The notes under the pieces were generated by a model. It saw only the letters and a program-made list of their open reading frames with translations, ran no database searches and was not told the DNA's origin. A stretch of 64,000 nucleotides of DNA, from the NCBI GenBank assembly GCA_004556165.1, contig SFIR01000001.1, forward strand, positions 286 to 64,285, in the 5' to 3' direction. The stretch comes from Clostridiales bacterium. Lineage in GTDB: Bacteria; Bacillota; Clostridia; Christensenellales; CAG-138. Each line of letters opens with the position of its first letter. Position 1 is the stretch's first letter. Shown here piece by piece: positions 2,812 to 17,240 of the stretch. The position numbers were made by a program, and so were the translations under genes.

Positions 2812-5800
2812 TTGAAAAACTCTTTAGTAACTAAATTCCTGGCACTTCTTGTATGTGCCATCATGGTCGCCGGCATCCTGCCCGTCGCAGCGTTCGCCGA
2901 AAGCACAAGGGGCGGAGTCTCCGTTGATGCCGATGCTCCCACACCGCCAAGTTCCGATGCCGATTGGATAAGCATCACGGGCGATGGAGACCCGGTTTAT
3001 GGATTTAAACTGGTAGATAGTTTGACCAGCGGCAATTATTATATGATCTTAAGCTCAAATACGGGCGGCAGTGATTCCGCTCATTGTTTGGCCGTATCTT
3101 TAGATGAGCCGGTCCTTGGTGCGGCTTCCTTTGGCGTACTTACCGACAGCGAGGGGACTTGGTGTGCAGAAGATGGCAGCCTTTTATCCACATTTTATAC
3201 GAATTGCTGTTGGCATTATGACGGAACCAAACTTACTCCATATCAATACAACAGCAGTTTGAATTCGAATTATACAGGCTCGAATTATTATCTGTATTAT
3301 TCCAGCGGATTGACGCTCAGCACGAGCTATGATACGTTTAGATACAGCAGCAGCTACGGTCCGTATTTGTCGTGGACGTCTTGGGGAACGACTTATTATT
3401 GTTATATAAATTACTCATCATCCCAAAGCTTTTACGGATCGGACAAGTATAACAATCGCACCTACATTTATGAGTATTCGCTTCATAATTATAAAGATAG
3501 CTACGCTGCCCTCTCCGGCAAGACTGATTTTGTAGTCAGGAATAATGCGTACAGCACAACTGATGATATCCTTGCCATGGTTAGGGATAATATCTATGTA
3601 TGGTATTCGGAAACCAGCGATCATTCCGATGCTGTACTGACCGAAGATTACACCTTTGCAGCGGCAGGGGATTCATTGCCGCAGCCGGGAACCGACGGTA
3701 CCTATCCCGTTAGTGTCCAGTATAACGGTGTGACTATCGGCACTATCAATGTCTATGTCACTTCGGCACAGCCCGATTTAGTGACGGTAAGTCCCTCCGG
3801 CCGTGTGAAGCTCGGCGCCTCCGTCAGCGCTCTTGTCGGCTCCACCATGACCATGACCTATTCTGCAAGCAGTATCAGTGGTCTCAGCGAAACCGTTACA
3901 GAGACTGTCCCCGTGACCTTTGGTATGGTCAGCCGCACCGATGGCTTTGATGAGGTTGGCATTTATACCGATTGTACCGTCACCTATGCAGGGATTACCT
4001 ATAACCCCTATATTCTTGAGGTCTATTCCGTCGAATATCCCGTATACCCCAATCCCGGCTCCGTTTCCGTCAATAAGACCGGCACCGGTATCGATTGGTA
4101 TCAGACCGGTCTCGCAAATGTCGAGCTTTCCGCAATGGGTATTCCGGAGAATCGGGGCGTCGATATCATCGTTATGATCGACACTTCCTCCTCTATGGAC
4201 AACGACCGTTTGACCGCTGTCAGGCAGTCCCTTGTTAACCTCGTTAAATACCTCAATACTCCGAATGCCGACGGCACTGCGCGCGATGTCAGAATGGCTA
4301 TCGGAGATTTCAGCGACCATTCGACAAGCGGTATCTTTGCGTATACCTTGGCTGACCGTTTCGGCAAGGATTTGCCGATAACTTATACTTCTTCCGGCTC
4401 TACAGGATTTACTTTCAGCGATTACTCACAGGGCAAGATCTATACCGGTCCCAATGCGTGTTCGGACGGCACTCTGACGAGTTCTTCGTATTCAGCCGAA
4501 TACAGGGGCTATTATACAGCCGATGCCTTCGTTGATGTAAGTACTCTCGCACGCAGGGATTTCAGCGAGATAGCGCCTCCAGATCTTACCAGCGGCGCAG
4601 GCACCAATTATGATGCCGGTCTCGGCGCTGCATACATGCTTGGCAATGCTATCAGAATGGCAAATGAAGCATCCGATGATGAAGCTATGAAGGATAGGGA
4701 GCTTGTTGTTATCTTTATGTCCGATGGTTCGCCTTATCAGTATAATTTCTTCACAAAGTCATACTTGCCTTCATCTTCCGGCTCCTGGGACGGAACCACT
4801 TACAACTGGACAAGAGCAAGCCAGGATTGGCGAAATTATATCGGTGGAGAATCGAATAACAACGGAACGGTGGCAAATAATCCGGGCAGTAACGGACTTT
4901 ATAGTAGCAGTTACAACTGGTATGCGGAGGCTATCAAAGGCAGCCGCAGCGGTTTGTACTCAGTTATAGATAAAAGCAGCAGCAAGGTACTTGCAAGCGC
5001 AGCAGGTACGACTGAGCACATTGTCGGAGACGATTATTTTTATAATGTTCACGGTCTCGATGCAAAGCTGTATACCATAGGGTTCTGCCTTGCTAACGAT
5101 ACAAACAACGGTATGACCGTCGCTAACCAGACCTATTGCCTTAGGAACCTGCTGGCAACCGGCGATAATTACTATTACTCTGCTAACTCCGCTTCTGATC
5201 TTACCGATGCGTTCCTCGATATCTCCGGCAAGATTCTCGTTGCCGGCAAATATGCCTATTATGAGGATACAATGGGTGATGCTTATGAGCTTCAGCTTGC
5301 GGATAAGACCTATGGAGATACAACTTACAGTCAGGCGATAGAAGTAAGGCGTTACGTTACCGTAAAGCTTTCCGATGTAGGCAGAACTATGACCATTGAC
5401 GAAGAGTCTGTCACCATTACGGCAAACGATGTCGGCAGGCGCACCGGAGAGGTTGAGGTTATTGAACGAGTTACCTTCAATGCTGATGGGACTGAAGCCT
5501 ATTCTTCACTCCTCGGAGACACTACTAATATATTAGGCAGTGACGGTATTATCAGGGCAAAATATTTCTATTATAATACTAACTCGACTGAGAAAACCAT
5601 CACTGTTCCCATGCTTGAACCCGGCGCTGAGGCAATAACCGACCAGACGGATTACGACAACCCCTATGTTATGAAGGCGTATTCCTTCTCTACAGATCCG
5701 ACCTCAAGTGAAGGATGGACTATTGGAGGCACGGCAACTTCTTCCAGCTATGGTAGGTGGAACTATTCAAGTTCCGGCGGATACATGCAGTCTGCTGCGA

Positions 5801-8745
5801 ATACCAGCTATAATTCTTGGCTTGTTTCTCCCGAGTTTAATGTACCTGAAGCGGGCGGTCGCTTGAGACTTACCCTTGTTAACCATAAAAGCCCAACAGG
5901 AGGCAGCACCGGTTCCGAAATAACGGATTATGCCCACCTGTATGTCCGTGAAGTCGGAACCAATACTTGGGTAAAAGTCAGGACCTGTAATCTGACTCTA
6001 AACTTCACATGGTCTTACTTTAGCTTCTACATGAAGGGCACCGATGTTGACGGGAATCCTTACAACTTCAATGGAAAGACCGTTCAGATTTGTATTGAAC
6101 GCGGCACCGACAGCACTTATGGCCTTCGCGCCGACGATGTTTTCTTCTATGGTTATAACTTTGCGACCGTAACTACCGGTGCAACTATGGATTATACCAT
6201 TAAGCCCTATACATTCTATTGGCAGATCGGGGATATTACCGAGGATGAGATTGCTCTGAGCTATAACGTATATCTCAAGAATTCAATTCTTCCCAATGAC
6301 CAAACAGGTGTTGAGGAGGGCATTTATCCCACCAATGAAAGCGCCGTTCTTTACTACAAGAATTGCTATGACGATAACTGCAAGCAGTCGGTTCCCTCTC
6401 CCGAGCTTCCTTGGGGTCAGGCAAGGGTCAGCTATGCGTTCTATTATGTAGATTCTTCAGGTAATCCCATCGTAAACCTCATCACCGGTGCAACGGGTAA
6501 CTTCACAAACAGGATCGCTGCTCTTGATCCCGTGCAGTATGCAAAATTCAGATTCCTTACCGGAACATCGATCAGTGCGGCTGCTTTAGCAGAAAGCCTC
6601 GGTTTGGAGCTTTACGATCAGGTCGCCGCATATGCGGTCACCGCAGGCACTAAGGGTACCGATGGAACATGGACTATAACAAAGGGTGTCGATAAAGCGG
6701 CGACAACCTATGTAACCGGTTACAGCGGCTCCGATTATACCACTACGGATAGTACTTCGACTGACGGCAGGGACTGCAGCAATACCACCGTATGGTTTGC
6801 AGTTGTGTACAAGGTCGGTGCAGTCAGCGATGCAGTCGTTCTCGATTACGGTCTGCCTGTGAATATCAATGTATTGGATAATGACCTTCTGTCCATGGTT
6901 GCGGAAAAAGAGATTGTCGGTATTGGATGTATCGACTTTGCTACAGAAAATATTCCCGAAGGTTCGACTCCAACCTTAGATGGAAGATTCACACTGAATG
7001 TACTGCAGGATGGAACATCTGGTAAGGTGGGTAACTTCGGCACAGCGAAGGTAGCTGATGCCGCCAAGGGTTTCATAACCTATACATTGGATAATAGTAA
7101 ATCAATGAACTTCAATGCTCCCGAGACTCTGGCCTATGCGGTGCAGTGTAAGGGCTTTGACGAAGCAGGAAATGAGGAGTACACCTATTATTACGCAAGG
7201 CTCACCATCATCCCGGCGACGATTGTGTATTATGAAGATAACTTCATTACATTCACTCCCGGCGAGTCTACTACCGTTGTGGGCGAGAATGCGACTACCA
7301 CTCCTATTACATGGGCATGCGTTGGTAAACCTGTGGATGATCCGTATCAGTCCCAGGACCGTCCCGGCGCTTCTGGTAACCCGTTCTTAGATGCAGATAA
7401 TGCCTATGGTTACGATCCTGCATATGCTGATTGCTCACAGTACAGCATGGGTGATAGCTACTGCGTAACGGTTGATGGGAATACCACTGAGAATCCCAAA
7501 GCATCCTTCACCTTCTGGGGCACCGGCTTTGATATTATTTCAAAGACCAGCTCCGATAGCGGCATTATGATCGTTGAGATTAAAAAAGCCGAGACCAATG
7601 AGCCTGTCGACTGTTTGATTGTCGATACCTATTACGGCTATACCTACAATGCTGATCATACCTGGTCGCCCAACCCAACAGGTGCGGCAGTTTGGCAGGT
7701 TCCTGTAATTAAGAGGACTGGGCTTGACTATGGTCACTACAGGGTAAATATTATTCCTGTCTATAATGAAGTTCTCGACCACAATCCTGATCCGGAAAAT
7801 CCGGGTTATACCGTCTATATCGATGCTGTCCGCATCTATGACCCGGTTGATGTTTCTGCCGGCACTACTGACGCAAACAGGGTTGCAAATGCATATGCTC
7901 TTGATGGAGAGGCAAACCCCGATTATCAGACTGTAAGGCACTTCGTGTTCAACCAGATGTCATCCGCTCTTGGGATCGAGGGCTTTGTCGGTGGCGTCTT
8001 TATCGATGGTGCAGGAGAGGTTAGTTACAACGGCAATTTCGAGTATACTAACCCGAGCCCAAATAACGAGATCTATCTCGCTCCCGGTCAGGCTGTCTAC
8101 TTCAAGCTCCGCGCTAATGTTGACCCGACCAATCAGCGCGTAATGATCGGAGTTAAGCTCGCGTTCGGCTCGAGTGCATCCTTGACCCTCACCCAGCTCA
8201 ATTCGGAAGGTAGAGAAATATCAACCGATTCCATTGCAACTGTAAAAACTGCGACTGATATGTACTATTCACTCGGCAATATTACATGGAATCCGAAGCC
8301 AGTCGGTGAACCCACGTATTATGAAACCAACGGTCTGGTTCTTGCGAATACAGGCAGCACCGGCAATGTCATCTCGCTTACGAACCTCAAGATATCCTCT
8401 TATGATACGAGTGTTGTCATCAACTTCGCAGATAATATTACTGCGGCTTCCGATGTGAACGAGCTGCTTGCAGACGATTCTGCTCTTATCGTTCCTTGCT
8501 GCGATTATGAAGAGGCTATTGCTGCTGCCGAGTACATGAACTATAACTATGGCAGCTACACTCTCGGTGATGTAAACGGCGATGGCGAGATCGACATGCT
8601 TGATACGCTGATAACCCTTCGCCATACTATTGGTCTTGCCGAACTCTGGGGTGCAAAGCTCAAGGCTGCCGATATGGATGGCAACGGTGTTATCGATGCA
8701 ATTGATGTAATGCATATAATGCGTTACGTTATGGAGAATAAGTGA
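2812..8745 (+). CDS. Giant (~1977 aa) secreted dockerin-containing protein with vWA/MIDAS domain and MAM/choice-of-anchor-J-like domain
   Basis: Long ORF 2611-8745. I place the start at in-frame TTG 2812 because AAGGAGG (2797-2803) lies 8 nt upstream. The product then begins MKNSLVTKFLALLVCAIMVAGILPVAAFAE (signal peptide). vWA MIDAS-like DIIVMIDTSSSMD (nt ~4161-4200). EGWTIGG...YNSWLVSPEF segment (nt ~5710-6170). C-terminal type-I dockerin with duplicated F-hand GDVNGDGEIDMLD / ADMDGNGVIDAID (nt ~8566-8700). Confidence 0.85.
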   Translation: MKNSLVTKFLALLVCAIMVAGILPVAAFAESTRGGVSVDADAPTPPSSDADWISITGDGDPVYGFKLVDSLTSGNYYMILSSNTGGSDSAHCLAVSLDEPVLGAASFGVLTDSEGTWCAEDGSLLSTFYTNCCWHYDGTKLTPYQYNSSLNSNYTGSNYYLYYSSGLTLSTSYDTFRYSSSYGPYLSWTSWGTTYYCYINYSSSQSFYGSDKYNNRTYIYEYSLHNYKDSYAALSGKTDFVVRNNAYSTTDDILAMVRDNIYVWYSETSDHSDAVLTEDYTFAAAGDSLPQPGTDGTYPVSVQYNGVTIGTINVYVTSAQPDLVTVSPSGRVKLGASVSALVGSTMTMTYSASSISGLSETVTETVPVTFGMVSRTDGFDEVGIYTDCTVTYAGITYNPYILEVYSVEYPVYPNPGSVSVNKTGTGIDWYQTGLANVELSAMGIPENRGVDIIVMIDTSSSMDNDRLTAVRQSLVNLVKYLNTPNADGTARDVRMAIGDFSDHSTSGIFAYTLADRFGKDLPITYTSSGSTGFTFSDYSQGKIYTGPNACSDGTLTSSSYSAEYRGYYTADAFVDVSTLARRDFSEIAPPDLTSGAGTNYDAGLGAAYMLGNAIRMANEASDDEAMKDRELVVIFMSDGSPYQYNFFTKSYLPSSSGSWDGTTYNWTRASQDWRNYIGGESNNNGTVANNPGSNGLYSSSYNWYAEAIKGSRSGLYSVIDKSSSKVLASAAGTTEHIVGDDYFYNVHGLDAKLYTIGFCLANDTNNGMTVANQTYCLRNLLATGDNYYYSANSASDLTDAFLDISGKILVAGKYAYYEDTMGDAYELQLADKTYGDTTYSQAIEVRRYVTVKLSDVGRTMTIDEESVTITANDVGRRTGEVEVIERVTFNADGTEAYSSLLGDTTNILGSDGIIRAKYFYYNTNSTEKTITVPMLEPGAEAITDQTDYDNPYVMKAYSFSTDPTSSEGWTIGGTATSSSYGRWNYSSSGGYMQSAANTSYNSWLVSPEFNVPEAGGRLRLTLVNHKSPTGGSTGSEITDYAHLYVREVGTNTWVKVRTCNLTLNFTWSYFSFYMKGTDVDGNPYNFNGKTVQICIERGTDSTYGLRADDVFFYGYNFATVTTGATMDYTIKPYTFYWQIGDITEDEIALSYNVYLKNSILPNDQTGVEEGIYPTNESAVLYYKNCYDDNCKQSVPSPELPWGQARVSYAFYYVDSSGNPIVNLITGATGNFTNRIAALDPVQYAKFRFLTGTSISAAALAESLGLELYDQVAAYAVTAGTKGTDGTWTITKGVDKAATTYVTGYSGSDYTTTDSTSTDGRDCSNTTVWFAVVYKVGAVSDAVVLDYGLPVNINVLDNDLLSMVAEKEIVGIGCIDFATENIPEGSTPTLDGRFTLNVLQDGTSGKVGNFGTAKVADAAKGFITYTLDNSKSMNFNAPETLAYAVQCKGFDEAGNEEYTYYYARLTIIPATIVYYEDNFITFTPGESTTVVGENATTTPITWACVGKPVDDPYQSQDRPGASGNPFLDADNAYGYDPAYADCSQYSMGDSYCVTVDGNTTENPKASFTFWGTGFDIISKTSSDSGIMIVEIKKAETNEPVDCLIVDTYYGYTYNADHTWSPNPTGAAVWQVPVIKRTGLDYGHYRVNIIPVYNEVLDHNPDPENPGYTVYIDAVRIYDPVDVSAGTTDANRVANAYALDGEANPDYQTVRHFVFNQMSSALGIEGFVGGVFIDGAGEVSYNGNFEYTNPSPNNEIYLAPGQAVYFKLRANVDPTNQRVMIGVKLAFGSSASLTLTQLNSEGREISTDSIATVKTATDMYYSLGNITWNPKPVGEPTYYETNGLVLANTGSTGNVISLTNLKISSYDTSVVINFADNITAASDVNELLADDSALIVPCCDYEEAIAAAEYMNYNYGSYTLGDVNGDGEIDMLDTLITLRHTIGLAELWGAKLKAADMDGNGVIDAIDVMHIMRYVMENK

Positions 8746-8767
8746 GCAGTTTCAAGCTCAGCTATGT

Positions 8768-8787
8768 GGGGCGAGCATCCTCGCCCC
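8768..8787 (+). other. Perfect 8-bp GC-rich stem-loop (ggggcgag-catc-ctcgcccc) without a U-tract, between the giant gene and the small peptide gene
   Basis: Read directly from the sequence. The downstream sequence gacaagaatcttt is not a canonical T-run. Confidence 0.6.
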
Positions 8788-8817
8788 GACAAGAATCTTT
8801 AATTTGGAGGTAAACAA

Positions 8818-9069
8818 ATGAAAAGTTATACCAAGCCTGAAATTGCTTTCGTGAACTTCGGAAATAGAAATGATATCGGTACTGCCGGCTCATGCAAGAT
8901 CAACGGAACATGGGGAAGCGCAAAAAGCTGCAACTATGAAGTGTTCCCGGGATATAATCTCTTCCTTGAAATTTCGACAGCGAAATGCAATGTTAGACCG
9001 CAGGATGGCGAATTCGGCAAATTCTGCTATGATGTTCCTCTCGCCGATTCTCGCATTTTCCATTCCTGA
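8818..9069 (+). CDS. 83-aa Cys-containing peptide, candidate RiPP precursor
   Basis: GGAGG lies 7 nt upstream of the ATG. No signal peptide. Cys at residues 26, 38, 57 and 70. The peptide ends ...ADSRIFHS. It sits immediately upstream of the rSAM/SPASM-PqqD operon. Confidence 0.6.
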   Translation: MKSYTKPEIAFVNFGNRNDIGTAGSCKINGTWGSAKSCNYEVFPGYNLFLEISTAKCNVRPQDGEFGKFCYDVPLADSRIFHS

Positions 9070-9086
9070 TTTATACTGAACTGCTT

Positions 9087-9112
9087 TTACCCCGCCGTAA
9101 CAAGCGGGGTAA
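9087..9112 (+). other. Perfect 9-bp stem-loop (ttaccccgc-cgtaacaa-gcggggtaa) after the peptide gene, with weak or no U-tract
   Basis: Read directly. It lies 18 nt after the stop codon and 11 nt before the next ATG. It could be a partial terminator or an mRNA stabiliser. Confidence 0.55.
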
Positions 9113-9122
9113 ATTCCGTATT

Positions 9123-9884
9123 ATGAAGAAAAAAACCAGTAAAAAAATCGGCATAGCTTTAGCGATTATAGCAGCGGCGGCAGCATTCTTGGCTCTTATT
9201 ACGCTGCTTACTTTAGGTGAGCAGAACAGGGGCAATAATTCCGATCCGACGCTAAGCCCCACGGCTTCGGATAATCCTGCGGAAACCTCGGTTCCGATCG
9301 TTATAGAGGATGGCTCGGAAAGGTCGCTCGGCTACGGCATCGAGCTGAAGAATATTGCTTCGGTTTCCGGTATCTATTATGAGGACGGAAGCAATGCCAT
9401 GCTCACAGACTTCCTCTCGGCAACCTTTTATAATAATTCCGATACCTATATCCAGTATGCGGCTATCAGATTGAACTGCGATGGTGTTGAATACAATTTC
9501 GAGCTGTCCGTTGTTCCGCCAAAGTCGTATATTCGCGCATTTGATAAGAATAAAAAGTCTGCGCCCGTGCGCGTCGTATCTGCAAAAGGTGAAGTGATGC
9601 AATATGTCGCCTTCAGCGAGACCCCTTCGCTCCATGAAAACCTATTTGAAATCACCGCTGCGGAGAATGTTCTCTATGTAAAAAATATTTCGGGCAAGGA
9701 TATAACGGATGATTTCTATATCTGCTATAAGAACTATGATTCCGGCATACTTATCGGCGGAATATGCTACAGCCTGAAAATCGAGGGCGGAATTGCCGCC
9801 GGAGAGACATATACCGCTTATGCCCGTCATTTCAGCACCCGATACAGCATGCTGATGTTTGTAAACTATCATGAGCAGGACTAA
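9123..9884 (+). CDS. Signal-anchored membrane protein of unknown function (253 aa)
   Basis: N-terminus MKKKTSKKIGIALAIIAAAAAFLALITLLTL (basic stretch plus one TM). The rest is predicted extracytoplasmic with no motif I recognise. The 3' end overlaps the next gene by 14 nt. Confidence 0.6.
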   Translation: MKKKTSKKIGIALAIIAAAAAFLALITLLTLGEQNRGNNSDPTLSPTASDNPAETSVPIVIEDGSERSLGYGIELKNIASVSGIYYEDGSNAMLTDFLSATFYNNSDTYIQYAAIRLNCDGVEYNFELSVVPPKSYIRAFDKNKKSAPVRVVSAKGEVMQYVAFSETPSLHENLFEITAAENVLYVKNISGKDITDDFYICYKNYDSGILIGGICYSLKIEGGIAAGETYTAYARHFSTRYSMLMFVNYHEQD

Positions 9885-10626
9885 GCTGTATTCCATAGCC
9901 GATGTAACTATCGGGATATTTGCGCCCTGGGAGATCGTTGAACCGAATGATTTCCCTGAATTTGAGGTTGAATCGGCGGAACCCGATTACAGTATCTTTG
10001 TTCACAAAGGCGAAGCATGTGATTTCCCTGCGGAAAACGATTACGTTATCCGCATGCGCAGCGGAAATACTATCGACCTATACTATAAACCGAGCGTTGC
10101 CGAGCTCGTATATCCGCGTTCGGTACTCGCCGACGCCGGTGTCGACGCTCTGCTTGCCGAGCATGATGCCTTCATTCTCCACTCATCCTATATCGGCATC
10201 AATGGTAAAGCTTTGCTTTTCTCCGCTCCGAGCGGTACCGGCAAGAGCACTCAGGCGGATTTCTGGCACAATGAGCGAGGAGCCGAGATAATCAACGGCG
10301 ATAGATCAATTGTTTCGCTTCGTAACGGCAGATTCTTTGCGAACGGCTGTTTTTTCAGCGGTTCGAGCGGCTTCTGCAAGAATATTACGCTTCCGCTGCA
10401 TGCTGTCGTGCTTCTCGGACAGGCAGAAATGAATATTGCTGAACGTGCCGCCGGGCTTGATGCTTTCATACGCATTTTAAATGAAACGCAGCTAAGTTCT
10501 ATGGATACCGAAAATGTAAGTCGTGTTACCGGGCTTATAGAGAAGCTCATTGCCGAGGTAAAGATAATTGATTTCAGATGTGTAAACGATCCGAATACGG
10601 TTGAATACTTGGAGAAATACCTATGA
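9871..10626 (+). CDS. HPr kinase/phosphorylase-like P-loop protein (putative peptide kinase), 251 aa
   Basis: Walker-A-like FSAPSGTGKSTQADFW lies mid-protein after a hydrophobic strand, as in HprK-type P-loop proteins. Translationally coupled on both sides. The family call rests on motif and context only. Confidence 0.5.
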   Translation: MSRTKLYSIADVTIGIFAPWEIVEPNDFPEFEVESAEPDYSIFVHKGEACDFPAENDYVIRMRSGNTIDLYYKPSVAELVYPRSVLADAGVDALLAEHDAFILHSSYIGINGKALLFSAPSGTGKSTQADFWHNERGAEIINGDRSIVSLRNGRFFANGCFFSGSSGFCKNITLPLHAVVLLGQAEMNIAERAAGLDAFIRILNETQLSSMDTENVSRVTGLIEKLIAEVKIIDFRCVNDPNTVEYLEKYL

Positions 10627-11741
10627 AAATAGATGATAGATTATTGAACGGCGAACCGTATTGGTCCGCATACATGCATTCCAAGGGTACACAGCTCGGG
10701 CTTCCGATCGCAGGGACCTTTGAAATAACTCCTCGCTGCAATTTCAACTGCAAGATGTGCTATATTCATCAGCAAGCCGACAAGCCCGAGCTTTCCGCCG
10801 ATGAATGGCTCGACATCGGCAGGCAGGCTGCTGCGTGCGGCATGATATTTATACTCATCACGGGCGGCGAACCGCTGATTCGTCCCGATTTTCCGAAGAT
10901 CTATAAGGGGCTAAAGGAGCTGGGGCTGCTCGTTTCAGTGAATACCAACGGCTCACTGATAACGGATGAGGTCTTTGATATGTTTGTAAGCGATCCCCCG
11001 AACAGGATAAACATCTCCCTTTACGGCGGAAGCGATGATACATACATGAAGCTCTGCGGAAATGCGAAGTACTCTGTTGTTACGGGCAATATCAGGCGCC
11101 TGAAGGAAGCCGGGATTTCCATGCGTATCAATGCTTCTTTCACTCCCGAGAACGCGTCCGACATCAAAGCGGTTTATGATTTTGCAAAGGAAATGAATCT
11201 TCCCGTCCAGTCATCGACCTATATGTACCCTCCGATCCGTGTAAATGCCGGTGGCTTTGGCGTTGCTCCGAATAGGTTCGGTGCTGAGGAAGCCGCAAAA
11301 TATATGCTAACATGCCGCGAACAGATTATGACGCCCGAACAGCTTCTGAAATCCATTGAGGGTATCGGAGGCATGCACGAGGAATGTACCGGCAGCGAGG
11401 GCGAACCAATGCACTGCCGCGCAGGCCGGACTTCATTCTGGGCTGCTTGGGATGGCAGGCTGCTGCCGTGCGCTATGTTCCCGATTGAAGGATACGATAT
11501 AAGAAAGCTCGGATTTGCGGAAGCATGGAAATGCGCGAGGGAGTTCACAAAGACCGTTCGCCTGCCGAGCGAGTGCGCGGCTTGTTCACACAATAAGGAC
11601 TGCTGCGCATGCGCGTCATCCTGCATTGCGGAAACCGGAAGCTTTGATAAAAAGCCCGAGTATGTCTGCACATTCACGAAAACCTTCCATGAGCTTATAA
11701 GGCAAAAGTATTCCAAGGAGGAAACGCAAAATGAAGACTAA
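10623..11741 (+). CDS. Radical SAM enzyme with C-terminal SPASM-type auxiliary Fe-S domain (peptide maturase-like)
   Basis: TPRCNFNCKMCY is the CX3CX2C motif. GGEPL motif present. C-terminal CRAGRTSFWAAWDGRLLPC (CX12GX4C) and ECAACSHNKDCCACASSC plus EYVC form a SPASM-like Cys pattern. ATGA start/stop overlap with the upstream gene. Confidence 0.85.
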   Translation: MKIDDRLLNGEPYWSAYMHSKGTQLGLPIAGTFEITPRCNFNCKMCYIHQQADKPELSADEWLDIGRQAAACGMIFILITGGEPLIRPDFPKIYKGLKELGLLVSVNTNGSLITDEVFDMFVSDPPNRINISLYGGSDDTYMKLCGNAKYSVVTGNIRRLKEAGISMRINASFTPENASDIKAVYDFAKEMNLPVQSSTYMYPPIRVNAGGFGVAPNRFGAEEAAKYMLTCREQIMTPEQLLKSIEGIGGMHEECTGSEGEPMHCRAGRTSFWAAWDGRLLPCAMFPIEGYDIRKLGFAEAWKCAREFTKTVRLPSECAACSHNKDCCACASSCIAETGSFDKKPEYVCTFTKTFHELIRQKYSKEETQNED

Positions 11742-11997
11742 TCCTGCATTTGTCCATAGAAATATTGTCGGAGACCATGTTCTTGTACCAATCGGAAATG
11801 CAAATCTCAAGAACAACGGCGTATTTCCGCTCACTGAAACCGGAGCTGAGATATTCGATCTTTATGCTTCCGGGCTGAGCGAAAGTGAAATCATTGATAA
11901 GCTCCTAACCGAATACGATGTCGAAAGGGATGTTCTCGTTTCCGATGTCCGTGAGTTTACCGAAGCACTTATCGAGATCGGCGCATTGATTGACTAA
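11731..11997 (+). CDS. PqqD-family protein (RiPP recognition element-type peptide chaperone), 88 aa
   Basis: Typical size and pattern (VGDHVLVPIG...FPLTETGAEIFDL...SESEIIDKLLTEYDV...DVREFTEALIEIGAL). AAGGAGG RBS. Overlaps the rSAM gene by 11 nt. Confidence 0.75.
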   Translation: MKTNPAFVHRNIVGDHVLVPIGNANLKNNGVFPLTETGAEIFDLYASGLSESEIIDKLLTEYDVERDVLVSDVREFTEALIEIGALID

Positions 11998-12017
11998 AAT
12001 AACGCTGATAACACAAG

Positions 12018-12047
12018 AGCCATGGCACGCACCATGGCTTTCTTTTA
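12018..12047. terminator. Rho-independent terminator closing the peptide-modification operon (possibly bidirectional with the convergent rsmF-like gene)
   Basis: agccatgg-cacgca-ccatggct followed by ttctttta. Confidence 0.75.
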
Positions 12048-12061
12048 TAAGAATTTATGCT

Positions 12062-13390
12062 CTATCTATATGCGGCGACAGCGAGCCCCTTGGGCAAATG
12101 ATTCTTGAGCACGCCGTCAACTGCCTTTCCGAACCCGACAGGGAAACCGTCGGCCGTGACCGCAAAGTAACCGCGAAGGTTCGGCGGTATCTCGATGGTA
12201 TTTCCGGAAAGAAACCTAAGAAGCTCGGAAGAATTGCGTCCAAGATTGATGCGGTTCCTGCACTCATACCCGAATTCATGAAGTTCACCCGATGCCATAA
12301 ACAGCGCATGGTGGGGCTTCAGCCGATTCTTTACTATCTCTCCGACAGGTATACCGAAGGACAGCACGCGGAGCTTAAATAGGTTATCTGGAATTTCCGA
12401 AGGCAGAAAGCATATGCTGCCGCTTTTTGATTCATGGAATCCCATGCCGCCGGGGAAGGACGAAAAGGTTTCGGCTATAAAATCCTTTACGAGCCTTGCG
12501 GATTCCTTACCGATCGCCGTCTTGAACGCCTTGAATGCTCCGCTGCTTCCGCCCCTTTTAGTGAGCCTTGCCGCGAAATGCCCTTCGCCACAGCAGGTAT
12601 GAGGATAATACCGCTTCATATAGTCAAGCACGAACTCCGGATGAGCGGAAAGGAATGCTTCTATAACATCCTCATTCTCCTGCTTTGAAAAGGTACAGGT
12701 GGAGTAGATGAGCTTTCCGTTCGCAGAAACGAGCTTTGCTGCACTTTCGAGAATAGCCTTCTGACGCAAGGCGCAGGCGTCCACCGCCTCGGGAGACCAC
12801 TCGGCAATCGCTGCCGGATCCTTCCTGAACATGCCCTCACCCGAGCAGGGCGCATCAACTATGACACGGTCGAAATAGCAGGGAAGTACCGATGCTATTT
12901 CGTCAGGGTGGGCGCAGGTGACGGCGGAATTCATAACTCCGAGCCGCTCAAGGTTTTGACAGAGGAGCTTGGCACGAGAAGGTACTATCTCATTTGAAAG
13001 CAGAAAGCCGCTGCCATTGAGCCTTGCGGCAATTCCACCGCTCTTTCCTCCCGGAGCTGCGCATAGATCGAGCACACGCATTCCGGGCCCGATATCGGCA
13101 TGCTCTATCACGCTCATTGCGGAGGGCTCCTGCATGTAAATCAATCCTGCGATATGATATGGATCAGTTCCTATGTGCGGGACTTCCTCATCGAGGATAA
13201 GCCCCTCGTAAAGCGTATCGGCCTGTTTGACTTTCCATGGGCATAGTTTAAGAAACTCCTCCTTGCTGAGCTTCAGCGTGTTGATGCGCAGACCTCGGAT
13301 GGGAGGATTATTGTACCGGGAGATGAAAGCTTCATATTCATCTCCCAATTGTTCCTTCATTCTGCTTCTAAAGGCTTCGGGCAGATTCAT
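12062..13390 (-). CDS. RsmB/RsmF (NOL1/NOP2/Sun) family rRNA m5C methyltransferase
   Basis: Motifs MQEPSAM, LDLCAAPGGKS, DAPCSGEGMFRK, YSTCTF. Confidence 0.85.
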   Translation of the reverse strand: MNLPEAFRSRMKEQLGDEYEAFISRYNNPPIRGLRINTLKLSKEEFLKLCPWKVKQADTLYEGLILDEEVPHIGTDPYHIAGLIYMQEPSAMSVIEHADIGPGMRVLDLCAAPGGKSGGIAARLNGSGFLLSNEIVPSRAKLLCQNLERLGVMNSAVTCAHPDEIASVLPCYFDRVIVDAPCSGEGMFRKDPAAIAEWSPEAVDACALRQKAILESAAKLVSANGKLIYSTCTFSKQENEDVIEAFLSAHPEFVLDYMKRYYPHTCCGEGHFAARLTKRGGSSGAFKAFKTAIGKESARLVKDFIAETFSSFPGGMGFHESKSGSICFLPSEIPDNLFKLRVLSFGIPVGEIVKNRLKPHHALFMASGELHEFGYECRNRINLGRNSSELLRFLSGNTIEIPPNLRGYFAVTADGFPVGFGKAVDGVLKNHLPKGLAVAAYR

Positions 13391-13395
13391 AGGGT

Positions 13396-15264
13396 TTATT
13401 TGTTATCCAAAAGCCTGTGAGTATTGCTTTCGGTAAACTGTGTGGTATAGAGATTATAATAGTAACCCTTCAATGCGAGCAGCTCGCTGTGCGTACCTGC
13501 TTCGGTGATCTTTCCACCGCGGATAACGAGTATCCTGTCGGCGGAACGGATGGTCGAAAGCCTGTGCGCAACGATGAAGCTCGTGCGGTTTTCAAGTACG
13601 GTCTTGATAGCATCCTGAATCAGCATCTCGGTCTCGGTATCTATGGAGCTTGTCGCCTCATCGAGTACAAAGATACGGGGGTCTGCAAGGATGACGCGTG
13701 CAAAGGATATTAGCTGCTTCTGCCCGGTCGAGAGCCTTACACCGCCCTCACCGACCTCGGTCGCGTACCCTTTTTCGAGCTTATCAATGAAGGTATCCGC
13801 GTGGACGAGCCTTGCTGCCTCACGAACCTCATCATCGCTCGCTTCGGGGCGCGCGTAGCGGATATTGTCGGCAATGCTTCCGGAGAACAGATGCGGACTC
13901 TGAAGCACATAGCCGAGCCTTGACTGCAGCCAGAGCTGACTGCGTTCGCGGTAATCGACTCCATCGATAAGAACCTCGCCCTCGGTGGGTTCGTAGAATC
14001 TGCATACGAGGTTGACGATGGTGGATTTACCTGCACCGGTCTCGCCGACGAGCGCGATGGTCTCGCCGCACCTGACATGGAGATTGAAATCGGTCAGCAC
14101 CTTTTCCCCGTCCTTATATGAGAAGGAAACATTTCTGAATTCGACCTCGCCCGTGATGCTTTCCCAGTTCTCGCGCTTGGGCTCGAAGCAGTCGCCGTAT
14201 TTTTCGATGACCTCATCGGTATCGGTTATATCGCTCTTTGCTTCGATAAGCGATATGACGCGTTCCGCGCTCGCCTGTGCACTCTGCATCTCGGCAAGGA
14301 TGCCTGCAAGCTGCTGGATCGGGTCGAAGAGGCTATTTGTGTAGGAAATAAAGGTGGAGAGTACGCCTATGGTCATGCTTGCACCGAAAATGGTCGGAGC
14401 AATCACAGTCCTGCCTCCGGCATAGAGGGCAATTGCGGTGCCGATAGAGCCAAGCGTCATAACTATCGGGGTGAACATAGCGGAGAACATCGCAGCACGG
14501 ATGCTCGCCTTCTTCATTCTTCCGGCTTCCGCTTCAAATTCCATATTGTTGCGCTCTTCACGAACGAGCGTTTTTGTGGTTACCGCACCGGTTATCGCTT
14601 CATTGAATGCGCCCGTGATTATTGAATTCTGCTTTCTGACGACGCGGTGCTCCTTGAGTATCTTTCTCTGAAAATACACGCAGATAACGGCAATCGGGGG
14701 GAATACGACGAGAACGACGAGAGCAAGCTTCCAATTCGTGACAAGCAGCATTATAAGACAGCCGATTATGAATACGCTTGACCAGAGCAGGTCGGTGACC
14801 GCCCATGAGATCATCTCGCTGAGCCTCGGAATATCGCTGACCATGCGGCTCATAATGTTGCCGACTGCGGTCTTATCATAATAGGAGAATGAGAGCTGCT
14901 GGAGCTTTTTGAAGGCATCCTGCCTGATATCGTAGGAGATAAGCATTTCAAGCTTTCCGTTATGGGAAACGAAGAACCAAACGCCGAAGCCTTGGATGAT
15001 TATCATGAGGAAATAGAATACTGCGAACATCGGCAGCTTGGCAAGCCCTGCTTCGCTTCCGTCAGCGATGATATTATCAATAGCATAACGGGTGAGCTGA
15101 GGGTATATGAGGTCAATAAGACCGACGATTGCCATTATTGCACAGCTTGATATAAGAACGCGTTTATGCTTCCATGCATAGGCAAAGAGCTTTTTCCAAA
15201 CGTTCATATCTATGCGTTTGGTAAATTCTTCCTCTTTGAGCGCAGTGGTTTTGAGTTCTTCCAT
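13396..15264 (-). CDS. ABC exporter ATP-binding/permease subunit (heterodimer partner with consensus Walker B, deviant signature)
   Basis: Six-TM N-domain plus NBD. Walker A GETGAGKST, signature LSTGQKQL (deviant), Walker B IFVLDEATS. The start overlaps the upstream stop by 1 nt (TAATG). Confidence 0.9.
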   Translation of the reverse strand: MEELKTTALKEEEFTKRIDMNVWKKLFAYAWKHKRVLISSCAIMAIVGLIDLIYPQLTRYAIDNIIADGSEAGLAKLPMFAVFYFLMIIIQGFGVWFFVSHNGKLEMLISYDIRQDAFKKLQQLSFSYYDKTAVGNIMSRMVSDIPRLSEMISWAVTDLLWSSVFIIGCLIMLLVTNWKLALVVLVVFPPIAVICVYFQRKILKEHRVVRKQNSIITGAFNEAITGAVTTKTLVREERNNMEFEAEAGRMKKASIRAAMFSAMFTPIVMTLGSIGTAIALYAGGRTVIAPTIFGASMTIGVLSTFISYTNSLFDPIQQLAGILAEMQSAQASAERVISLIEAKSDITDTDEVIEKYGDCFEPKRENWESITGEVEFRNVSFSYKDGEKVLTDFNLHVRCGETIALVGETGAGKSTIVNLVCRFYEPTEGEVLIDGVDYRERSQLWLQSRLGYVLQSPHLFSGSIADNIRYARPEASDDEVREAARLVHADTFIDKLEKGYATEVGEGGVRLSTGQKQLISFARVILADPRIFVLDEATSSIDTETEMLIQDAIKTVLENRTSFIVAHRLSTIRSADRILVIRGGKITEAGTHSELLALKGYYYNLYTTQFTESNTHRLLDNK

Positions 15265-17129
15265 TAGTTGTTACCTCCTTCCGAGGTGGTTTCAAGCTCC
15301 GCTTCGAGCAGGTTCTGTATGTCCGCAATGCGTTTATACAGTCCGTCCTCGGCAAGGAGCTGTTCATGGGTACCCTCTTGGACGAGCATACCGTTTTCGA
15401 GTACGAGTATCTTATCCGCACGGCAGAGGGTCGTGATACGATGCGAGATAATGAAGGTCGTGCAGTCCTGCCCCCTTGCTGCAAGCGCATCACGGATGGC
15501 GGCATCGGTTTCGGTATCGACGGCGCTCATGGAGTCGTCAAGCACGATGATGGGAGCCTTCTGCATGAGCATCCTTGCGATGGCAACGCGCTGCTTCTGA
15601 CCGCCCGAGAGCGTAACGCCCCTTTCGCCGACGACGGTTTCATAGCCGTTTTCAAATTCCTTTATCGCTTCGTGAATAGCTGCAACCGCAGCCGCGCCGT
15701 AAGCTTCATCGTCGCTCGCACCGGGATTTGTGATCTTGATATTCTCCATTATTGTACGGGAATAGAGGAATGGCTCCTGAAGCACGATACCGACATTCCT
15801 GCGCAGGTGATGACGCTCGATATCGTTGACGTTAACGCCGTCAATGAGGATCTCTCCCTCACGGCAGGTATAGAGCCTCTGAAGGAGCTGGACAAGGCTG
15901 GATTTGCCGGAACCGGTCGAACCGAGTATAGCCACGGTTTCGCCCTTGTGCGCTGTGAAGGAAATGTCGCGAAGGACATCCTGCCCGTCCTCATAGCCGA
16001 AGCTGACATGCCTGAACTCGATATTACCCTTGATCTCGGGGGTAAGTGCAAGGCCGGGTTCGCTTTCCGCCGGAACGGAAAGCACTTCATCAAGCCTTCC
16101 GAGCGAAACGCTGGCTTTGCCGAGATCGGCAAGTATCCTGCCGAGCTGACGGGCGGGCCATACGAGCAGGGAAGAATAGCTCGTGAATACCATCAGTTCG
16201 CCAACGGTGATCTCCTTTTTAATGACGAGCACGATGCTTGCGCAGAGCGTGATAGCTATCTGTGTATAGCCTATGGAATCGGTAATGCCCCAGAAGAGCG
16301 CCATGAGCTGAGTAAGCTTATAGGTCTTTTTACTGAAATCACGGTTTTTTTCTGTAAAGCTGTCAAGCTCGCGCTTCTGCTGGCCGAAGGCGCGCACAAC
16401 GCGCATACCCGAAACATTCTCCTGAATATCGTCGCTCAGTACGCCCTCGGCTTCATCCGCAGCGGTGAAGTATTTCTTTGCGTAGCGGAAATAGACGAAC
16501 GAGATAATCACGAGCGGAGGCATGATGATTACGGAATAGAGCGAAAGCTTAACGTTCATTGAGAACATGAAAACCGCTGCGATGATTATCATGCATGCCG
16601 TGCGAACGATCTCAAGAAGCTGGTTTGATACAAAGCGCCCGATGGTTCCGATATCGGAGGAACACCTCTGCACGATGTCACCGCTTGATACATGCTTGAA
16701 ATAGTCATAAGGCATATCCACAAGATGCGAATACATACGCATGCGCATATTGTAGCACATCTTTTCCGCACCGCGTGAGATCTGCGTGCGGCGCATGTAT
16801 GCGGCAAAAGCGTTAACGCCGGTCATCAGCACAAGAAGGATGCCCATGATGTAGAGATGCTCGGTCAGGAAAGCCCTTCCGCCGAAGCTGTCGATAATCC
16901 TTTCGAGCCAGGGCGCAACGGTCATTCCACCGGTATAGCCTATCTCGGCGTATTCGATAAGAACATAGTCAACGGTGAAGCTTGTGATAAGCGGGATGAT
17001 GTATACGCTTATTGCAGCGATGATGATAGCAATAACACCGAGCACAAGGTGCTTTTTGGCGCCCATCATAAATTCACCGATAAGTTTTTTGTTGATTTTT
17101 CTGTTTTTTGTTTTTTCTGTCTTTTTCAC
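15264..17129 (-). CDS. ABC exporter ATP-binding/permease subunit (heterodimer partner with degenerate Walker B Asp)
   Basis: ORF 15264-17165. Preferred start is GTG at 17129, with AGGAGA (complement of 17136-17141) 6 nt upstream. Walker A GSTGSGKSS, signature LSGGQKQR, Walker B IIVLDDSMS (catalytic Glu replaced by Asp). Confidence 0.9.
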   Translation of the reverse strand: MKKTEKTKNRKINKKLIGEFMMGAKKHLVLGVIAIIIAAISVYIIPLITSFTVDYVLIEYAEIGYTGGMTVAPWLERIIDSFGGRAFLTEHLYIMGILLVLMTGVNAFAAYMRRTQISRGAEKMCYNMRMRMYSHLVDMPYDYFKHVSSGDIVQRCSSDIGTIGRFVSNQLLEIVRTACMIIIAAVFMFSMNVKLSLYSVIIMPPLVIISFVYFRYAKKYFTAADEAEGVLSDDIQENVSGMRVVRAFGQQKRELDSFTEKNRDFSKKTYKLTQLMALFWGITDSIGYTQIAITLCASIVLVIKKEITVGELMVFTSYSSLLVWPARQLGRILADLGKASVSLGRLDEVLSVPAESEPGLALTPEIKGNIEFRHVSFGYEDGQDVLRDISFTAHKGETVAILGSTGSGKSSLVQLLQRLYTCREGEILIDGVNVNDIERHHLRRNVGIVLQEPFLYSRTIMENIKITNPGASDDEAYGAAAVAAIHEAIKEFENGYETVVGERGVTLSGGQKQRVAIARMLMQKAPIIVLDDSMSAVDTETDAAIRDALAARGQDCTTFIISHRITTLCRADKILVLENGMLVQEGTHEQLLAEDGLYKRIADIQNLLEAELETTSEGGNN

Positions 17130-17175
17130 GATGTTTCTCCTATAATACGGGAGTATGCAGTTCAATAATACCGAT

Positions 17176-17210: not shown

Positions 17211-17240
17211 CTGAAATAAACCAAAATCTATATCAGCATA

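Follow-up and report, generated by a model that had tools for sequence, protein, structure and literature searches.

A 64,000-nucleotide stretch of a Clostridiales bacterium contig, which we refer to as the window, carries a short four-cysteine peptide gene followed by genes for a membrane protein, a P-loop protein, a radical SAM (rSAM) enzyme and a PqqD-like protein. This raises the question of whether the 83-residue peptide is the substrate of the enzymes encoded beside it, and if so what kind of system this is. An earlier note, made from the sequence alone, described these five genes (8768-12047) as a candidate undescribed RiPP-type system with the peptide as the substrate. To address this, we first re-examined the sequence and then compared the cassette with its relatives.

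We found that the observation itself was sound, as the open reading frames, overlaps, ribosome binding site, motifs and terminator were all present as described. All of the genes are on the + strand. The peptide is encoded at 8818-9069, with GGAGG 7 nt upstream. It is followed by the membrane protein (9123-9884, 253 aa), the P-loop protein (9871-10626, 251 aa), the rSAM enzyme (10623-11741, 372 aa) and the PqqD-family protein (11731-11997, 88 aa; Pfam E=9e-13), and the last four genes overlap by 14, 4 and 11 nt. The operon ends at an intrinsic terminator (12016-12041 plus a T-run, 12016-12050 in all; RNA fold z=-3.2), which is bidirectional and shared with the convergent rsmF gene. This gene set is far beyond chance, since the same order recurs in dozens of species in unrelated neighbourhoods.

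However, the unit has six genes and not five, because the range given in the note misses a conserved component directly upstream. The gene at 2812-8745 encodes a giant secreted protein (1977 aa from the TTG at 2812; ribosome binding site AAGGAGG at 2797-2803) with a signal peptide, MKNSLVTKFLALLVCAIMVAGILPVAAFA, a VWA domain (~4162-4326), a tip-pilin-like Ig domain (~6040-6399), a conserved system-specific module (7186-8415) and a C-terminal type I dockerin (8563-8730; Dockerin_1, E=4.9e-10). In most relatives the position of the dockerin holds an acidic linker plus a short amphipathic ...LFGxWF[KR] tail. The best sigma-70-like promoter match upstream of this gene lies at 2546-2574 (TTGACA-17-TATGCT with an extended -10 TG; 10/12, a consensus match only) and is the likely start of a six-gene transcription unit with a leader of about 230 nt. 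No Rfam family was found in 1-20000. RNA folding predicted a GC-rich hairpin between the giant gene and the peptide gene (8765-8791; -21.4 kcal/mol for 8746-8817, z=-2.1), and a stable hairpin without a U-tract directly after the peptide gene (9086-9113; -18.9 kcal/mol, z=-3.8, 0/200 shuffles fold as well). The latter is a candidate attenuator or stabiliser that would set the precursor:enzyme ratio.

To determine whether the peptide belongs with the enzymes, we looked for homologous cassettes in other genomes. At least 494 species genomes contain such cassettes that keep a homologous peptide with conserved Cys and a [Y/W]xxPxΦ leader, the experimentally established binding determinant for PqqD-type RiPP recognition elements (RREs; PMC13381572). 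Cultured carriers include Pseudoflavonifractor capillosus ATCC 29799. The leader motif, as [YW]xxPx[LIVMAFY], was seen in 51/51 short and 33/35 long family peptides and in 58/59 of an independent set. In the window the leader is MKSYTKPEIAFVNFGN, with Y4-x-x-P7-x-I9 at nt 8827-8844. More than 110 distinct homologous short peptides share this leader, four positionally conserved Cys (26, 38, 57 and 70 in the window), a CY[HDN]xP motif and a near-universal C-terminal Ser. Exactly four Cys were present in 37/51 and 52/59 peptides, although a few long-class peptides have only 1-2. The tail, CYDVPLADSRIFHS, is conserved and ends in Ser83 (codon 9064-9066). A C-terminal Ser was found in 47/51, 28/35 and 53/59 peptides, and a Ser within the last two residues in all 145 (86 + 59), against a background of 41/1006. 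The note had also pointed out that each Cys is followed within 1-3 residues by Asn, Asp or Glu. This is real in the window but not meaningful, as it occurs in 46-62% of family members per Cys position against 45.5% expected from composition. The note did not pick up the terminal Ser, the YxxP leader, the giant protein or the strain-level variability described below.

We next examined the enzymes. The rSAM enzyme has the C39-X3-C43-X2-C46 motif (CNFNCKMC, nt 10737-10760) and a complete seven-Cys SPASM domain (Cys 265, 283, 318, 321, 327, 330 and 349; nt 11415-11669) that includes C265-X12-G-X4-C283 and CAACSHNKDCCAC. The CX3CX2C motif and the seven SPASM Cys are at least 99% conserved in 78 homologues. 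The note had named a best match to a non-peptide family such as anaerobic sulfatase maturase as an outcome that would count against its reading, but the full-length relatives are the peptide maturases PqqE and MftC. These are the only characterised enzymes that align over the full length, and their scores are far below the equivalog cut-offs (78 vs 381; 80 vs 265). As in this cassette, the PQQ (PqqA/D/E) and mycofactocin (MftA/B/C) pathways use a stand-alone PqqD-type RRE with an rSAM/SPASM enzyme, and PqqA leaders share the YxxP-type motif. Here, however, the precursor is 3-4 times longer and Cys-rich, and there are no downstream cofactor-processing genes. The closest solved relative of the PqqD protein is the lasso RRE TbiB1, and its best NCBIfam match is the lasso PqqD chaperone. 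We conclude that the peptide is very probably the substrate of the rSAM/PqqD pair.

The rSAM enzyme is nevertheless equally distant from all characterised families and every NCBIfam score is far below cut-off, so that thioether formation cannot be distinguished from C-C or other chemistry. One alternative is that the four Cys are not the rSAM targets but form two disulfides after export, the rSAM enzyme making a different modification (a C-C or C-O crosslink, an epimerisation, or chemistry on the CY[HDN]xP or ΦFxS motifs) and the P-loop protein being a non-catalytic ATP-binding scaffold. Consistent with this, PqqE and MftC make C-C bonds or act on a C-terminal residue, some long-class peptides have only 1-2 Cys, the ScmC family lacks the first Asp of the HprK DD pair, and the aromatic residues next to C4 and near the C-terminus are highly conserved. 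Against it, Cys1, directly after the leader, is present in nearly all peptides of both classes (49/51 and 35/35), and the terminal Ser and the co-occurrence of NTP_transf_5 genes (below) fit phosphorylation. We consider this alternative unlikely.

The P-loop protein (SAPSGTGKST) belongs to the large ScmC family, to which precomputed Pfam assigns it (PF27840), and is predicted to have the PEPCK/HPr-kinase fold. Its AF2 model (pLDDT 92) gave Foldseek hits to PEPCK (E 1.6e-7) and to HprK/P from four organisms (E 3e-6 to 3e-5). H104, Walker A (A119-T127, nt 10225-10251) and N142-G143-D144-R145 are invariant, and hhalign to a verified HprK aligned H104, Walker A and D144. The invariance of Walker A, H104, D144 and R145 suggests catalysis rather than a scaffold. 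However, sequence profiles alone did not reach Hpr_kinase_C or any PDB kinase beyond the P-loop, and the protein has an invariant Gly where HprK and PsmK have the first Asp of the catalytic DD pair. As the PsmK D158A/D159A double mutant is inactive (PMC6993621), kinase activity is not assured and the protein remains a candidate Ser kinase.

The note regarded an HprK-like partner as one of the features that match no named RiPP class, but such partners are not unprecedented. NCBIfam already has SynChlorMet (SCM), GeoRSP and HprK-related-kinase systems with PqqD and rSAM/SPASM partners. The SCM and GeoRSP cassettes contain the same trio of a PqqD-family chaperone, an rSAM/SPASM enzyme and a ScmC/HprK-related P-loop protein, and weak NCBIfam hits from our cassette go to ScmC and HprK_rel_A/B, to GeoRSP PqqD and rSAM, and to ScmE/F. 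The scores are far below the curated cut-offs (ScmC 14.8 vs 125, ScmE 67.6 vs 400, GeoRSP rSAM 73.6 vs 400). In addition there is one rSAM enzyme and not two, the hosts are gut Clostridia and Erysipelotrichales, and the system has a defined 73-90-aa precursor family, a giant surface protein and a membrane beta-sandwich protein. The SCM and GeoRSP systems are, as far as is known, bioinformatic only, with no known product. No curated family was found to name any component of the present system, and no paper describing it was found.

Likewise, HprK-like PadeK, PsmK and LppK phosphorylate a precursor Ser, which for PadeK and PsmK is the C-terminal Ser, and NTP_transf_5-type PsmN then glycosylates the phosphate (PMC6993621; PMC13381572). 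These paeninodin/pseudomycoidin-type lasso and Linear Polyphosphorylated Peptide (LPP) pathways also use a discrete RRE that recognises a [Y/W]xxPxΦ leader. NTP_transf_5 genes accompany 25 of the cassettes related to ours, and a coherent MsbA-like exporter subfamily accompanies many. The present cassette differs in having no lasso cyclase, B2 peptidase or SpI peptidase, in having an rSAM/SPASM enzyme as its core maturase, in its ~60-residue four-Cys core, and in a ScmC-family protein with GD instead of DD. As the note stated, the operon in the window has no peptidase or dedicated exporter, and we found that it also lacks an NTP transferase, which leaves unexplained how a cytoplasmically modified peptide would reach the giant protein.

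To test how closely the giant protein is tied to the cassette, we examined its position in related loci. Homologous giant genes lie directly upstream of the peptide gene in ~38/41 testable loci, typically 14-18 nt away. The ~400-aa module at 7186-8415 is the only universally conserved part of the protein (motifs PATTVYYED, YGYD, TFTFxGTGFDxIS, VDTYYGY, YLDAIRIYDP and GPNNExYL), and has no Pfam family, solved relative or recognisable enzyme domain. When metagenomes were searched in reverse with this module, the peptide was found downstream in 67/70 cases, ScmC in 48/49 and the rSAM enzyme in 37/38. Long-class cassettes, in contrast, lack any giant protein. The membrane protein encoded at 9123-9884 has homologues in 46-59 cassettes but no Pfam family. 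It is predicted to comprise an N-in TM helix (residues 10-34 in the AF2 model), a linker and tandem beta-sandwich ectodomains, with no enzyme fold.

We also compared strains of one species. The enzymes are 95-100% identical, whereas the peptide core is only 65-95% identical and the giant protein about 60%. The leader and the C-terminal tail of the peptide are conserved. The peptide and the giant protein vary independently between strains, which argues against a simple lock-and-key pairing of their variable parts.

A hypervariable core with a conserved leader is typical of RiPP toxins, and a SPASM rSAM enzyme with a Cys-rich precursor and an RRE is the classical sactipeptide and ranthipeptide layout (for example ruminococcin C, SCIFF/PapB and SkfB), also found in anaerobic Firmicutes. 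SkfB is the closest solved sequence relative over the rSAM core. A potential explanation is a stand-alone sactipeptide- or ranthipeptide-like bacteriocin that is crosslinked, exported by a housekeeping transporter and kills competitors, with the membrane protein as immunity factor and the giant protein only a neighbour; related cassettes often have an ABC exporter. However, the giant-protein module and the cassette predict each other almost perfectly across more than 100 loci with a gap of about 16 nt, and the membrane protein is 97-98% identical between strains whose peptide cores differ by up to 35%, unlike a specificity-matched immunity protein. Moreover, a ~60-residue conserved scaffold and conserved C-terminal tail are unusual for bacteriocin cores, this locus has no peptidase or exporter, and no sactipeptide or ranthipeptide NCBIfam cut-off was reached (PapB, StsB, AlbA, SkfB). 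The RRE is also a separate protein rather than fused, the precursor is longer, and kinase-fold, membrane and giant proteins are added. This explanation appears doubtful.

A further possibility is that the peptide is a crosslinked structural or cofactor-bearing subunit that becomes a permanent part of the giant-protein module, as QhpC, a small Cys-containing protein of about 80 aa matured by the rSAM/SPASM enzyme QhpD, becomes the gamma subunit of quinohemoprotein amine dehydrogenase and functions outside the cytoplasm as a partner of a much larger protein. The protein-like size (73-90 aa) and scaffold, the obligate pairing with the giant gene, the 130-150-aa long-class relatives and the invariant C-terminal tail agree with this. 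On the other hand, the QhpC pattern of Cys and acidic residues is at chance level here, no quinone or heme-related genes and no QhpE/QhpF-type peptidase or exporter are present, the partner is a hypervariable adhesin-like protein whose module has no recognisable enzyme domain, the long-class cassettes have no giant protein, and a hypervariable core is unexpected for a buried subunit. We regard this as improbable.

Taken together, the interpretation in the note is partly supported: the peptide-as-substrate inference is strongly supported by comparative genomics, whereas the Cys/acidic-residue pairing and the novelty of an HprK-like partner are not. The explanation that we favour, as somewhat more likely than not, is a six-gene unit in which the PqqD protein would bind the Y4-x-x-P7-x-I9 leader and present the peptide to the rSAM/SPASM enzyme, which would install one or more intramolecular crosslinks on the four-Cys scaffold, most likely Cys thioethers, while the ScmC-family protein would use ATP to phosphorylate Ser83. 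Of these steps, the leader motif and the RRE are shown by our analysis. The binding is inferred by analogy to lasso, PQQ and LPP RREs, the crosslinking and its chemistry are inferred, and phosphorylation is inferred from the fold, the aligned His/Walker A/Asp, the near-universal terminal Ser and the NTP_transf_5 partner in relatives. Function outside the cell is likewise inferred, from obligate gene linkage. In this view the cassette, which is common in gut Clostridia, would yield a crosslinked, phosphorylated mini-protein of about 60 residues, with a fixed scaffold and strain-variable loops, that acts outside the cell with the co-encoded giant surface protein, through its conserved 400-aa module, and with the membrane-anchored beta-sandwich protein.

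We first checked the gene organisation, and the observation in the earlier note, that five ORFs form a cassette, held in full. These are the peptide gene (8818-9069, 83 aa, with a GGAGG RBS 7 nt upstream), a membrane protein gene (9123-9884, 253 aa, with a TM helix at residues 10-34 in the AF2 model), a gene for a P-loop protein (9871-10626, 251 aa, with SAPSGTGKST), a radical SAM (rSAM) gene (10623-11741, 372 aa, Pfam Radical_SAM E=4e-26) and a PqqD gene (11731-11997, 88 aa, Pfam PqqD E=9e-13). The overlaps of 14, 4 and 11 nt were correct, and the terminator (12016-12041 plus a T-run) was confirmed. Two further stable hairpins, at 8765-8791 and 9086-9113 (z=-3.8), flank the peptide gene. Downstream the context is housekeeping: a convergent rsmF-type rRNA methyltransferase gene (12062-13390), a heterodimeric ABC exporter pair (13396-17165, minus strand) and a Cpn60/GroEL-sized ORF (17841-19466, 541 aa), and the syntenic loci L001 and L002 carry Cpn10 and Cpn60 genes at the corresponding position.

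To determine whether the peptide travels with the enzymes, we searched for relatives of both. The peptide has only seven close homologue clusters among 5.8 billion proteins, in which residues 1-16, the four Cys and the C-terminal 23 residues are essentially invariant while the middle is variable. Searching with the P-loop protein gave more than 2000 homologues, all annotated with Pfam PF27840 'ScmC', and an exhaustive HMMER search gave 10,463 clusters at 50% identity with E<=1e-3 and 1,192 with E<=1e-30. The precomputed PF27840 hits are, however, only 'faint' or 'weak' for the lineage of the window and unmarked (E<=1e-5) for homologues at ~40% identity, and a local Pfam copy, which may not contain the model, returned no PF27840 match for the protein itself at E<=0.1. 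Members at ~40% identity sit in the same gene order in unrelated neighbourhoods. A scan of species-representative genomes found relatives in at least 494 genomes, mostly gut Clostridia, spanning Oscillospiraceae, Lachnospiraceae, Ruminococcus, Erysipelotrichales and Peptostreptococcaceae, and including cultured human-gut strains; cultured strains among the carriers include Pseudoflavonifractor capillosus ATCC 29799 (L035), Flavonifractor hominis CLA-AP-H34 (L052), Mediterraneibacter glycyrrhizinilyticus An427 (L038), Intestinibacter bartlettii N19 (L076) and Anaerostipes butyraticus JCM 17466 (L060). In one Clostridia MAG (loci L009 and L010, 3036-6105) the cassette is followed by MobA/MobL relaxase-like and serine recombinase genes, so that some copies may sit on mobile elements.

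Iterated HMM searches in these loci recovered 86 distinct peptides, which fall into two classes, and a homologous peptide was found in the cassette in dozens of species. The short class (73-95 aa), to which the peptide of the window belongs, has the scaffold MKKxYxKPxΦxFExFxLSxNIAxxC1 ... C2 ... G-ΦF ... C3 ... C4-Y[HDN]xP ... ΦF-x-S, with widely varying loop lengths (C1-C2 2-20, C2-C3 14-34 and C3-C4 4-21 residues). The long class (about 105-200 aa, mostly 130-150) shares the YxxP leader, the ...VAAC Cys and the C-terminal Ser (e.g. ...HCTTNLDMSTWETAKS), but occurs in a different gene order (PqqD-peptide-rSAM-ScmC) without the giant or membrane proteins; it was seen in loci L031 (for example at 11260-11682), L042, L045, L047, L060, L062, L065, L069, L084, L086 and others, and some of these (L045, L060, L069) carry 3-5 paralogous precursor genes. 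The motif [YW]xxPx[LIVMAFY] is present in 51/51 short-class peptides, 33/35 long-class peptides and 58/59 peptides of an independent metagenome set. In the same three sets, a C-terminal Ser is present in 47/51, 28/35 and 53/59 (against 41/1006 for long ORFs as background), Ser lies within the last two residues in 51/51, 35/35 and 59/59, and exactly four Cys are present in 37/51, 17/35 and 52/59. By contrast, the pattern pointed out in the earlier note, that each Cys is followed closely by Asn, Asp or Glu, is at chance level: D, E or N lies within +1 to +3 of each Cys in 17-23 of 37 peptides (46-62%), against 45.5% expected. The conserved Cys/acidic pairing expected for a QhpC/QhpD system was therefore rejected, which counts against the rival possibility that the peptide is a QhpC-like permanent subunit.

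We next examined the maturation enzymes. In the rSAM protein the CX3CX2C motif (C39/43/46) and seven C-terminal Cys (C265-X12-G-X4-C283, C318-X2-C321-X5-C327-X2-C330 and C349) are each at least 99% conserved in 78 homologues. This is a complete 7-Cys SPASM domain (CX9-15GX4C ... CX2CX5CX3C ... C), albeit with a last spacing of X2 instead of X3 and with no score to Pfam SPASM itself, and two auxiliary clusters are therefore expected. The full-length NCBIfam alignments are to MftC and PqqE, but at 79.8 against a cut-off of 265 and 78.1 against 381, respectively. The sactipeptide and ranthipeptide models are also missed widely (StsB 73 vs 625 and SkfB 52 vs 300; for relatives, PapB 52-65 vs 340 and AlbA 53-54 vs 850). 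The closest solved sequences are SkfB, PqqE (full length) and SuiB. The enzyme is thus of the peptide-maturase type, although its chemistry cannot be assigned from sequence, and a rival view is that it carries out non-Cys chemistry alongside a non-catalytic ScmC-like protein. A comparison with the PADLOC anti-phage defence models showed only that the N-terminal rSAM core resembles pVip, and the other five proteins had no hit. Indeed, Pfam, NCBIfam and PADLOC name nothing beyond Radical_SAM and PqqD, either for the proteins of the window or for cassettes from cultured strains.

The best NCBIfam match of the PqqD protein is the lasso PqqD chaperone, and its only solved relative is the lasso RRE TbiB1 (E=1.6e-5). 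Crystal structures and Y/P mutagenesis have established [Y/W]xxPx[L/V/I/A/F/Y] as the RRE-binding motif of lasso, PQQ and LPP leaders (PMC13381572), and the peptide of the window has Y4-T-K-P7-E-I9. The system therefore combines a PqqD-like RRE with a leader carrying this motif, as expected of a RiPP pathway. However, it is not a lasso pathway, since none of the cassette proteins carries an Asn-synthetase-like macrolactam cyclase or B2 (transglutaminase-like) leader peptidase domain, and the core has no Asp/Glu at positions 7-9 after a Thr(-2) site and hence no macrolactam acceptor. Nor does the operon of the window encode a leader peptidase or dedicated exporter; no peptidase family recurs near any cassette, and the neighbouring ABC pair was rejected as the exporter of the system because it is only 26-28% identical to the cassette-linked exporter subfamily, which is 39-78% identical within itself.

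Sequence-profile searches with the ScmC-like family, including a search of PDB, reached nothing but the P-loop. We therefore turned to structure prediction: a confident AF2 model (pLDDT 92.4) matched PEPCK (Foldseek E 1.6e-7) and HprK/P from four organisms (1knx, 1ko7, 1jb1, 3tqf, 2qmh; E 3e-6 to 3e-5), which is the PEPCK/HprK P-loop fold. Pfam Hpr_kinase_C was not hit. An hhalign comparison with a verified HprK from locus L065 (Pfam Hpr_kinase_C, 5.5e-71), with an E of 1.2e-4 but a probability of only 55%, aligned H104, the Walker A loop, and 'IINGDR' with 'LIADDA', so that, of the HprK catalytic signature of Walker A GxSGxGKS plus an Asp-Asp pair, the invariant D144 matches the second Asp of the pair, while the first Asp is an invariant Gly (Gly143). 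There is nevertheless precedent for a kinase role: the HprK-like PadeK and PsmK add 1-3 phosphates to the side chain of the C-terminal Ser of the precursor, after which the NTP_transf_5-type PsmN adds hexoses to that phosphate (PMC6993621), and LppK polyphosphorylates a Ser in LPP precursors. In relatives of the cassette, NTP_transf_5 genes (25 loci, often directly after PqqD) and a coherent MsbA-like exporter subfamily (27 loci) recur, although no SpI peptidase was seen, and of the LPP/paeninodin-type tailoring module the window has only the kinase-fold protein and the RRE. The conserved terminal Ser plus this accessory set makes phosphorylation of Ser83 the most economical inferred role for the ScmC-like protein, but the missing Asp keeps this at moderate confidence. 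Many related cassettes (L026, L028, L031, L038, L040, L047, L055, L059, L061, L069, L070, L080 and L086) lie immediately upstream of a capsule/EPS-type block (CpsB/CapC phosphatase, an Ig-like membrane protein, two Wzz/BY-kinase genes and a GT4 glycosyltransferase), often with an MsbA-like exporter and NTP_transf_5 in between, which suggests a link to surface polysaccharide biology; the window has none of these.

The membrane protein is predicted to have an N-in TM helix followed by tandem beta-sandwich ectodomains, with no enzyme fold. This model is only moderately confident (pLDDT 64.7; core about 80), and Foldseek gave no significant match (best RbmA, E 2e-3), so that we assign no function beyond that of an anchored tandem beta-sandwich.

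A sixth component was found upstream. Short-class cassettes are preceded by a gene encoding a protein of 1,000-2,900 aa, which in the window is 2812-8745. Its true start is TTG 2812 with an AAGGAGG RBS, and a mechanical ORF call from ATG 2611 over-extends it by 67 codons. A leader of about 230 nt (2575-2811) lies between the best promoter-like site and this start, and Rfam found nothing in the leader or elsewhere in 1-20000. The giant protein has a signal peptide, a VWA domain, a GBS104-like tip-pilin Ig domain and a C-terminal dockerin. Giant proteins from different loci differ in their N-terminal domains (that of locus L005, for example, has a GH20 domain) but all share a ~400-aa module (7186-8415 in the window) for which no Pfam or PDB relative was found. 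A module HMM finds the module gene directly upstream of the peptide gene in ~38 of 41 testable loci, typically 14-18 nt away. To test the linkage in reverse, we started from the module alone in metagenome contigs (at least 450 relatives, of which 80 loci were retrieved), and found the peptide downstream in 67/70 testable loci, ScmC in 48/49 and the rSAM in 37/38. The linkage therefore runs in both directions. After the module, most giant proteins have an acidic/Pro/Thr-rich linker and a short conserved amphipathic ...LFGxWF[KR] tail (...SLFGRWFK, ...NLFGWLFN, ...SLLGWLFK; for example L020:7778-8389, L027:8057-8548 and L032:8484-8930), whereas the window (8563-8730), L011 and L030 have a dockerin there instead, suggesting an interchangeable surface-anchoring end. 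The tail superficially resembles the ...LFNS end of the peptide. In locus L007 the giant gene is split into two ORFs but it is intact in the otherwise near-identical L008, reflecting either an assembly error or a frameshifted allele.

In order to assess variation between strains, we compared five alleles from what is evidently one species with the window. Identity to the window is 97-98% for the membrane protein, 95.6-98% for the ScmC-like protein, 97.8-99.7% for the rSAM, 97.7-100% for PqqD and 99.8% for the flanking RsmF, but only 64.7-95.2% for the peptide and 58.7-61% for the full-length giant protein. The first ~1700 aa of the giant protein are 31-79% identical per 100-aa block, and its last ~300 aa are 84-97% identical. 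In the peptide all changes fall in codons 17-60, where dS is 0.06-2.4 and dN 0.05-0.53, against dS 0.02-0.13 and dN <=0.01 in the enzyme genes; dN/dS is 0.36-1.06 and dN in the leader is 0. This is the signature of old, divergent alleles exchanged by recombination, with relaxed or diversifying selection on the loops of a fixed scaffold. Strict co-variation of the two variable partners was rejected, since the allele in locus L093 has a peptide 95% identical but a giant protein only 61% identical, and they thus vary independently. Likewise, the membrane protein does not track the peptide, so it is not a loop-specific immunity protein or receptor, which argues against the rival explanation of a free bacteriocin with an immunity protein.

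The best-supported model is that of RRE-guided rSAM crosslinking of the four-Cys core, phosphorylation of the terminal Ser by the ScmC-like kinase-fold protein, and an extracytoplasmic role together with the giant surface protein and the anchored beta-sandwich protein. Our analysis establishes the gene content and its conservation, the motifs, the folds (from predicted structures), the gene linkage and the strain-level variability, whereas RRE binding, modification of the peptide and the type of crosslink, the phosphorylation, export and the partnership with the giant protein are all inferred. On sequence evidence alone the three rivals, namely the free bacteriocin, the QhpC-like subunit and non-Cys rSAM chemistry with a non-catalytic ScmC, cannot be excluded, although each conflicts with at least one observation. 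The interpretation in the earlier note, that the peptide is the substrate in an undescribed RiPP-type system, is partly supported.

The closest named systems are the SynChlorMet (SCM) and GeoRSP cassettes, which have PqqD, rSAM/SPASM and a ScmC/HprK-related protein, and the lasso/LPP phospho-tailoring module, which has an RRE, an HprK-like kinase, NTP_transf_5 and an exporter. The SynChlorMet cut-offs (TIGR04249/04250/04251) are not reached (ScmC 14.8 vs 125, ScmE 67.6 vs 400 and ScmF 55.1 vs 400), and all curated cut-offs are missed by wide margins. Literature searches on rSAM/SPASM/PqqD systems with HprK-, ScmC- or SynChlorMet-related, kinase or nucleotidyltransferase partners gave the lasso and LPP precedents but no description of this system in the papers searched. 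An RRE-dependent rSAM/SPASM peptide-maturation cassette with a kinase-fold partner is a known kind of system; what is new is the ~60-residue conserved four-Cys, terminal-Ser scaffold, the apparently obligate pairing with a giant surface protein through an uncharacterised module, the dedicated anchored beta-sandwich protein, and the strain-level hypervariability of the peptide loops and the giant protein.

A more far-reaching possibility, which we consider unlikely but which is not excluded, is that this is a previously unrecognised kind of cell-surface system, in which an rSAM-crosslinked, C-terminally phosphorylated mini-protein is the dedicated partner of giant, strain-variable surface adhesins or enzymes. 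It could be a ligand, a staple, an anchor or a specificity subunit, and would act through the new ~400-aa module and the membrane-anchored beta-sandwich protein. Because both the peptide loops and the outer domains of the giant protein are exchanged between strains, the pair could mediate strain-specific recognition, such as kin discrimination, phage or host evasion, or matrix assembly, and in relatives it could link to capsule/EPS loci through phospho-glycosylation of the terminal Ser.

Although the ScmC-like protein that marks these cassettes is widespread, no component has a curated name or a known product. The comparative data turn an anonymous operon into a testable system, with a defined precursor family, a predicted RRE-binding motif, four candidate crosslink sites and a predicted phosphorylation site. 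The pairing of a RiPP-type maturation cassette with giant surface proteins, and the strain-level hypervariability of exactly these two partners, was not found described for any RiPP class in the literature searched. It suggests a role in surface biology or strain-specific interactions in the gut rather than classical antibiotic production, and would also give the first function for the ScmC/HprK-related proteins that recur in several orphan rSAM/SPASM systems.
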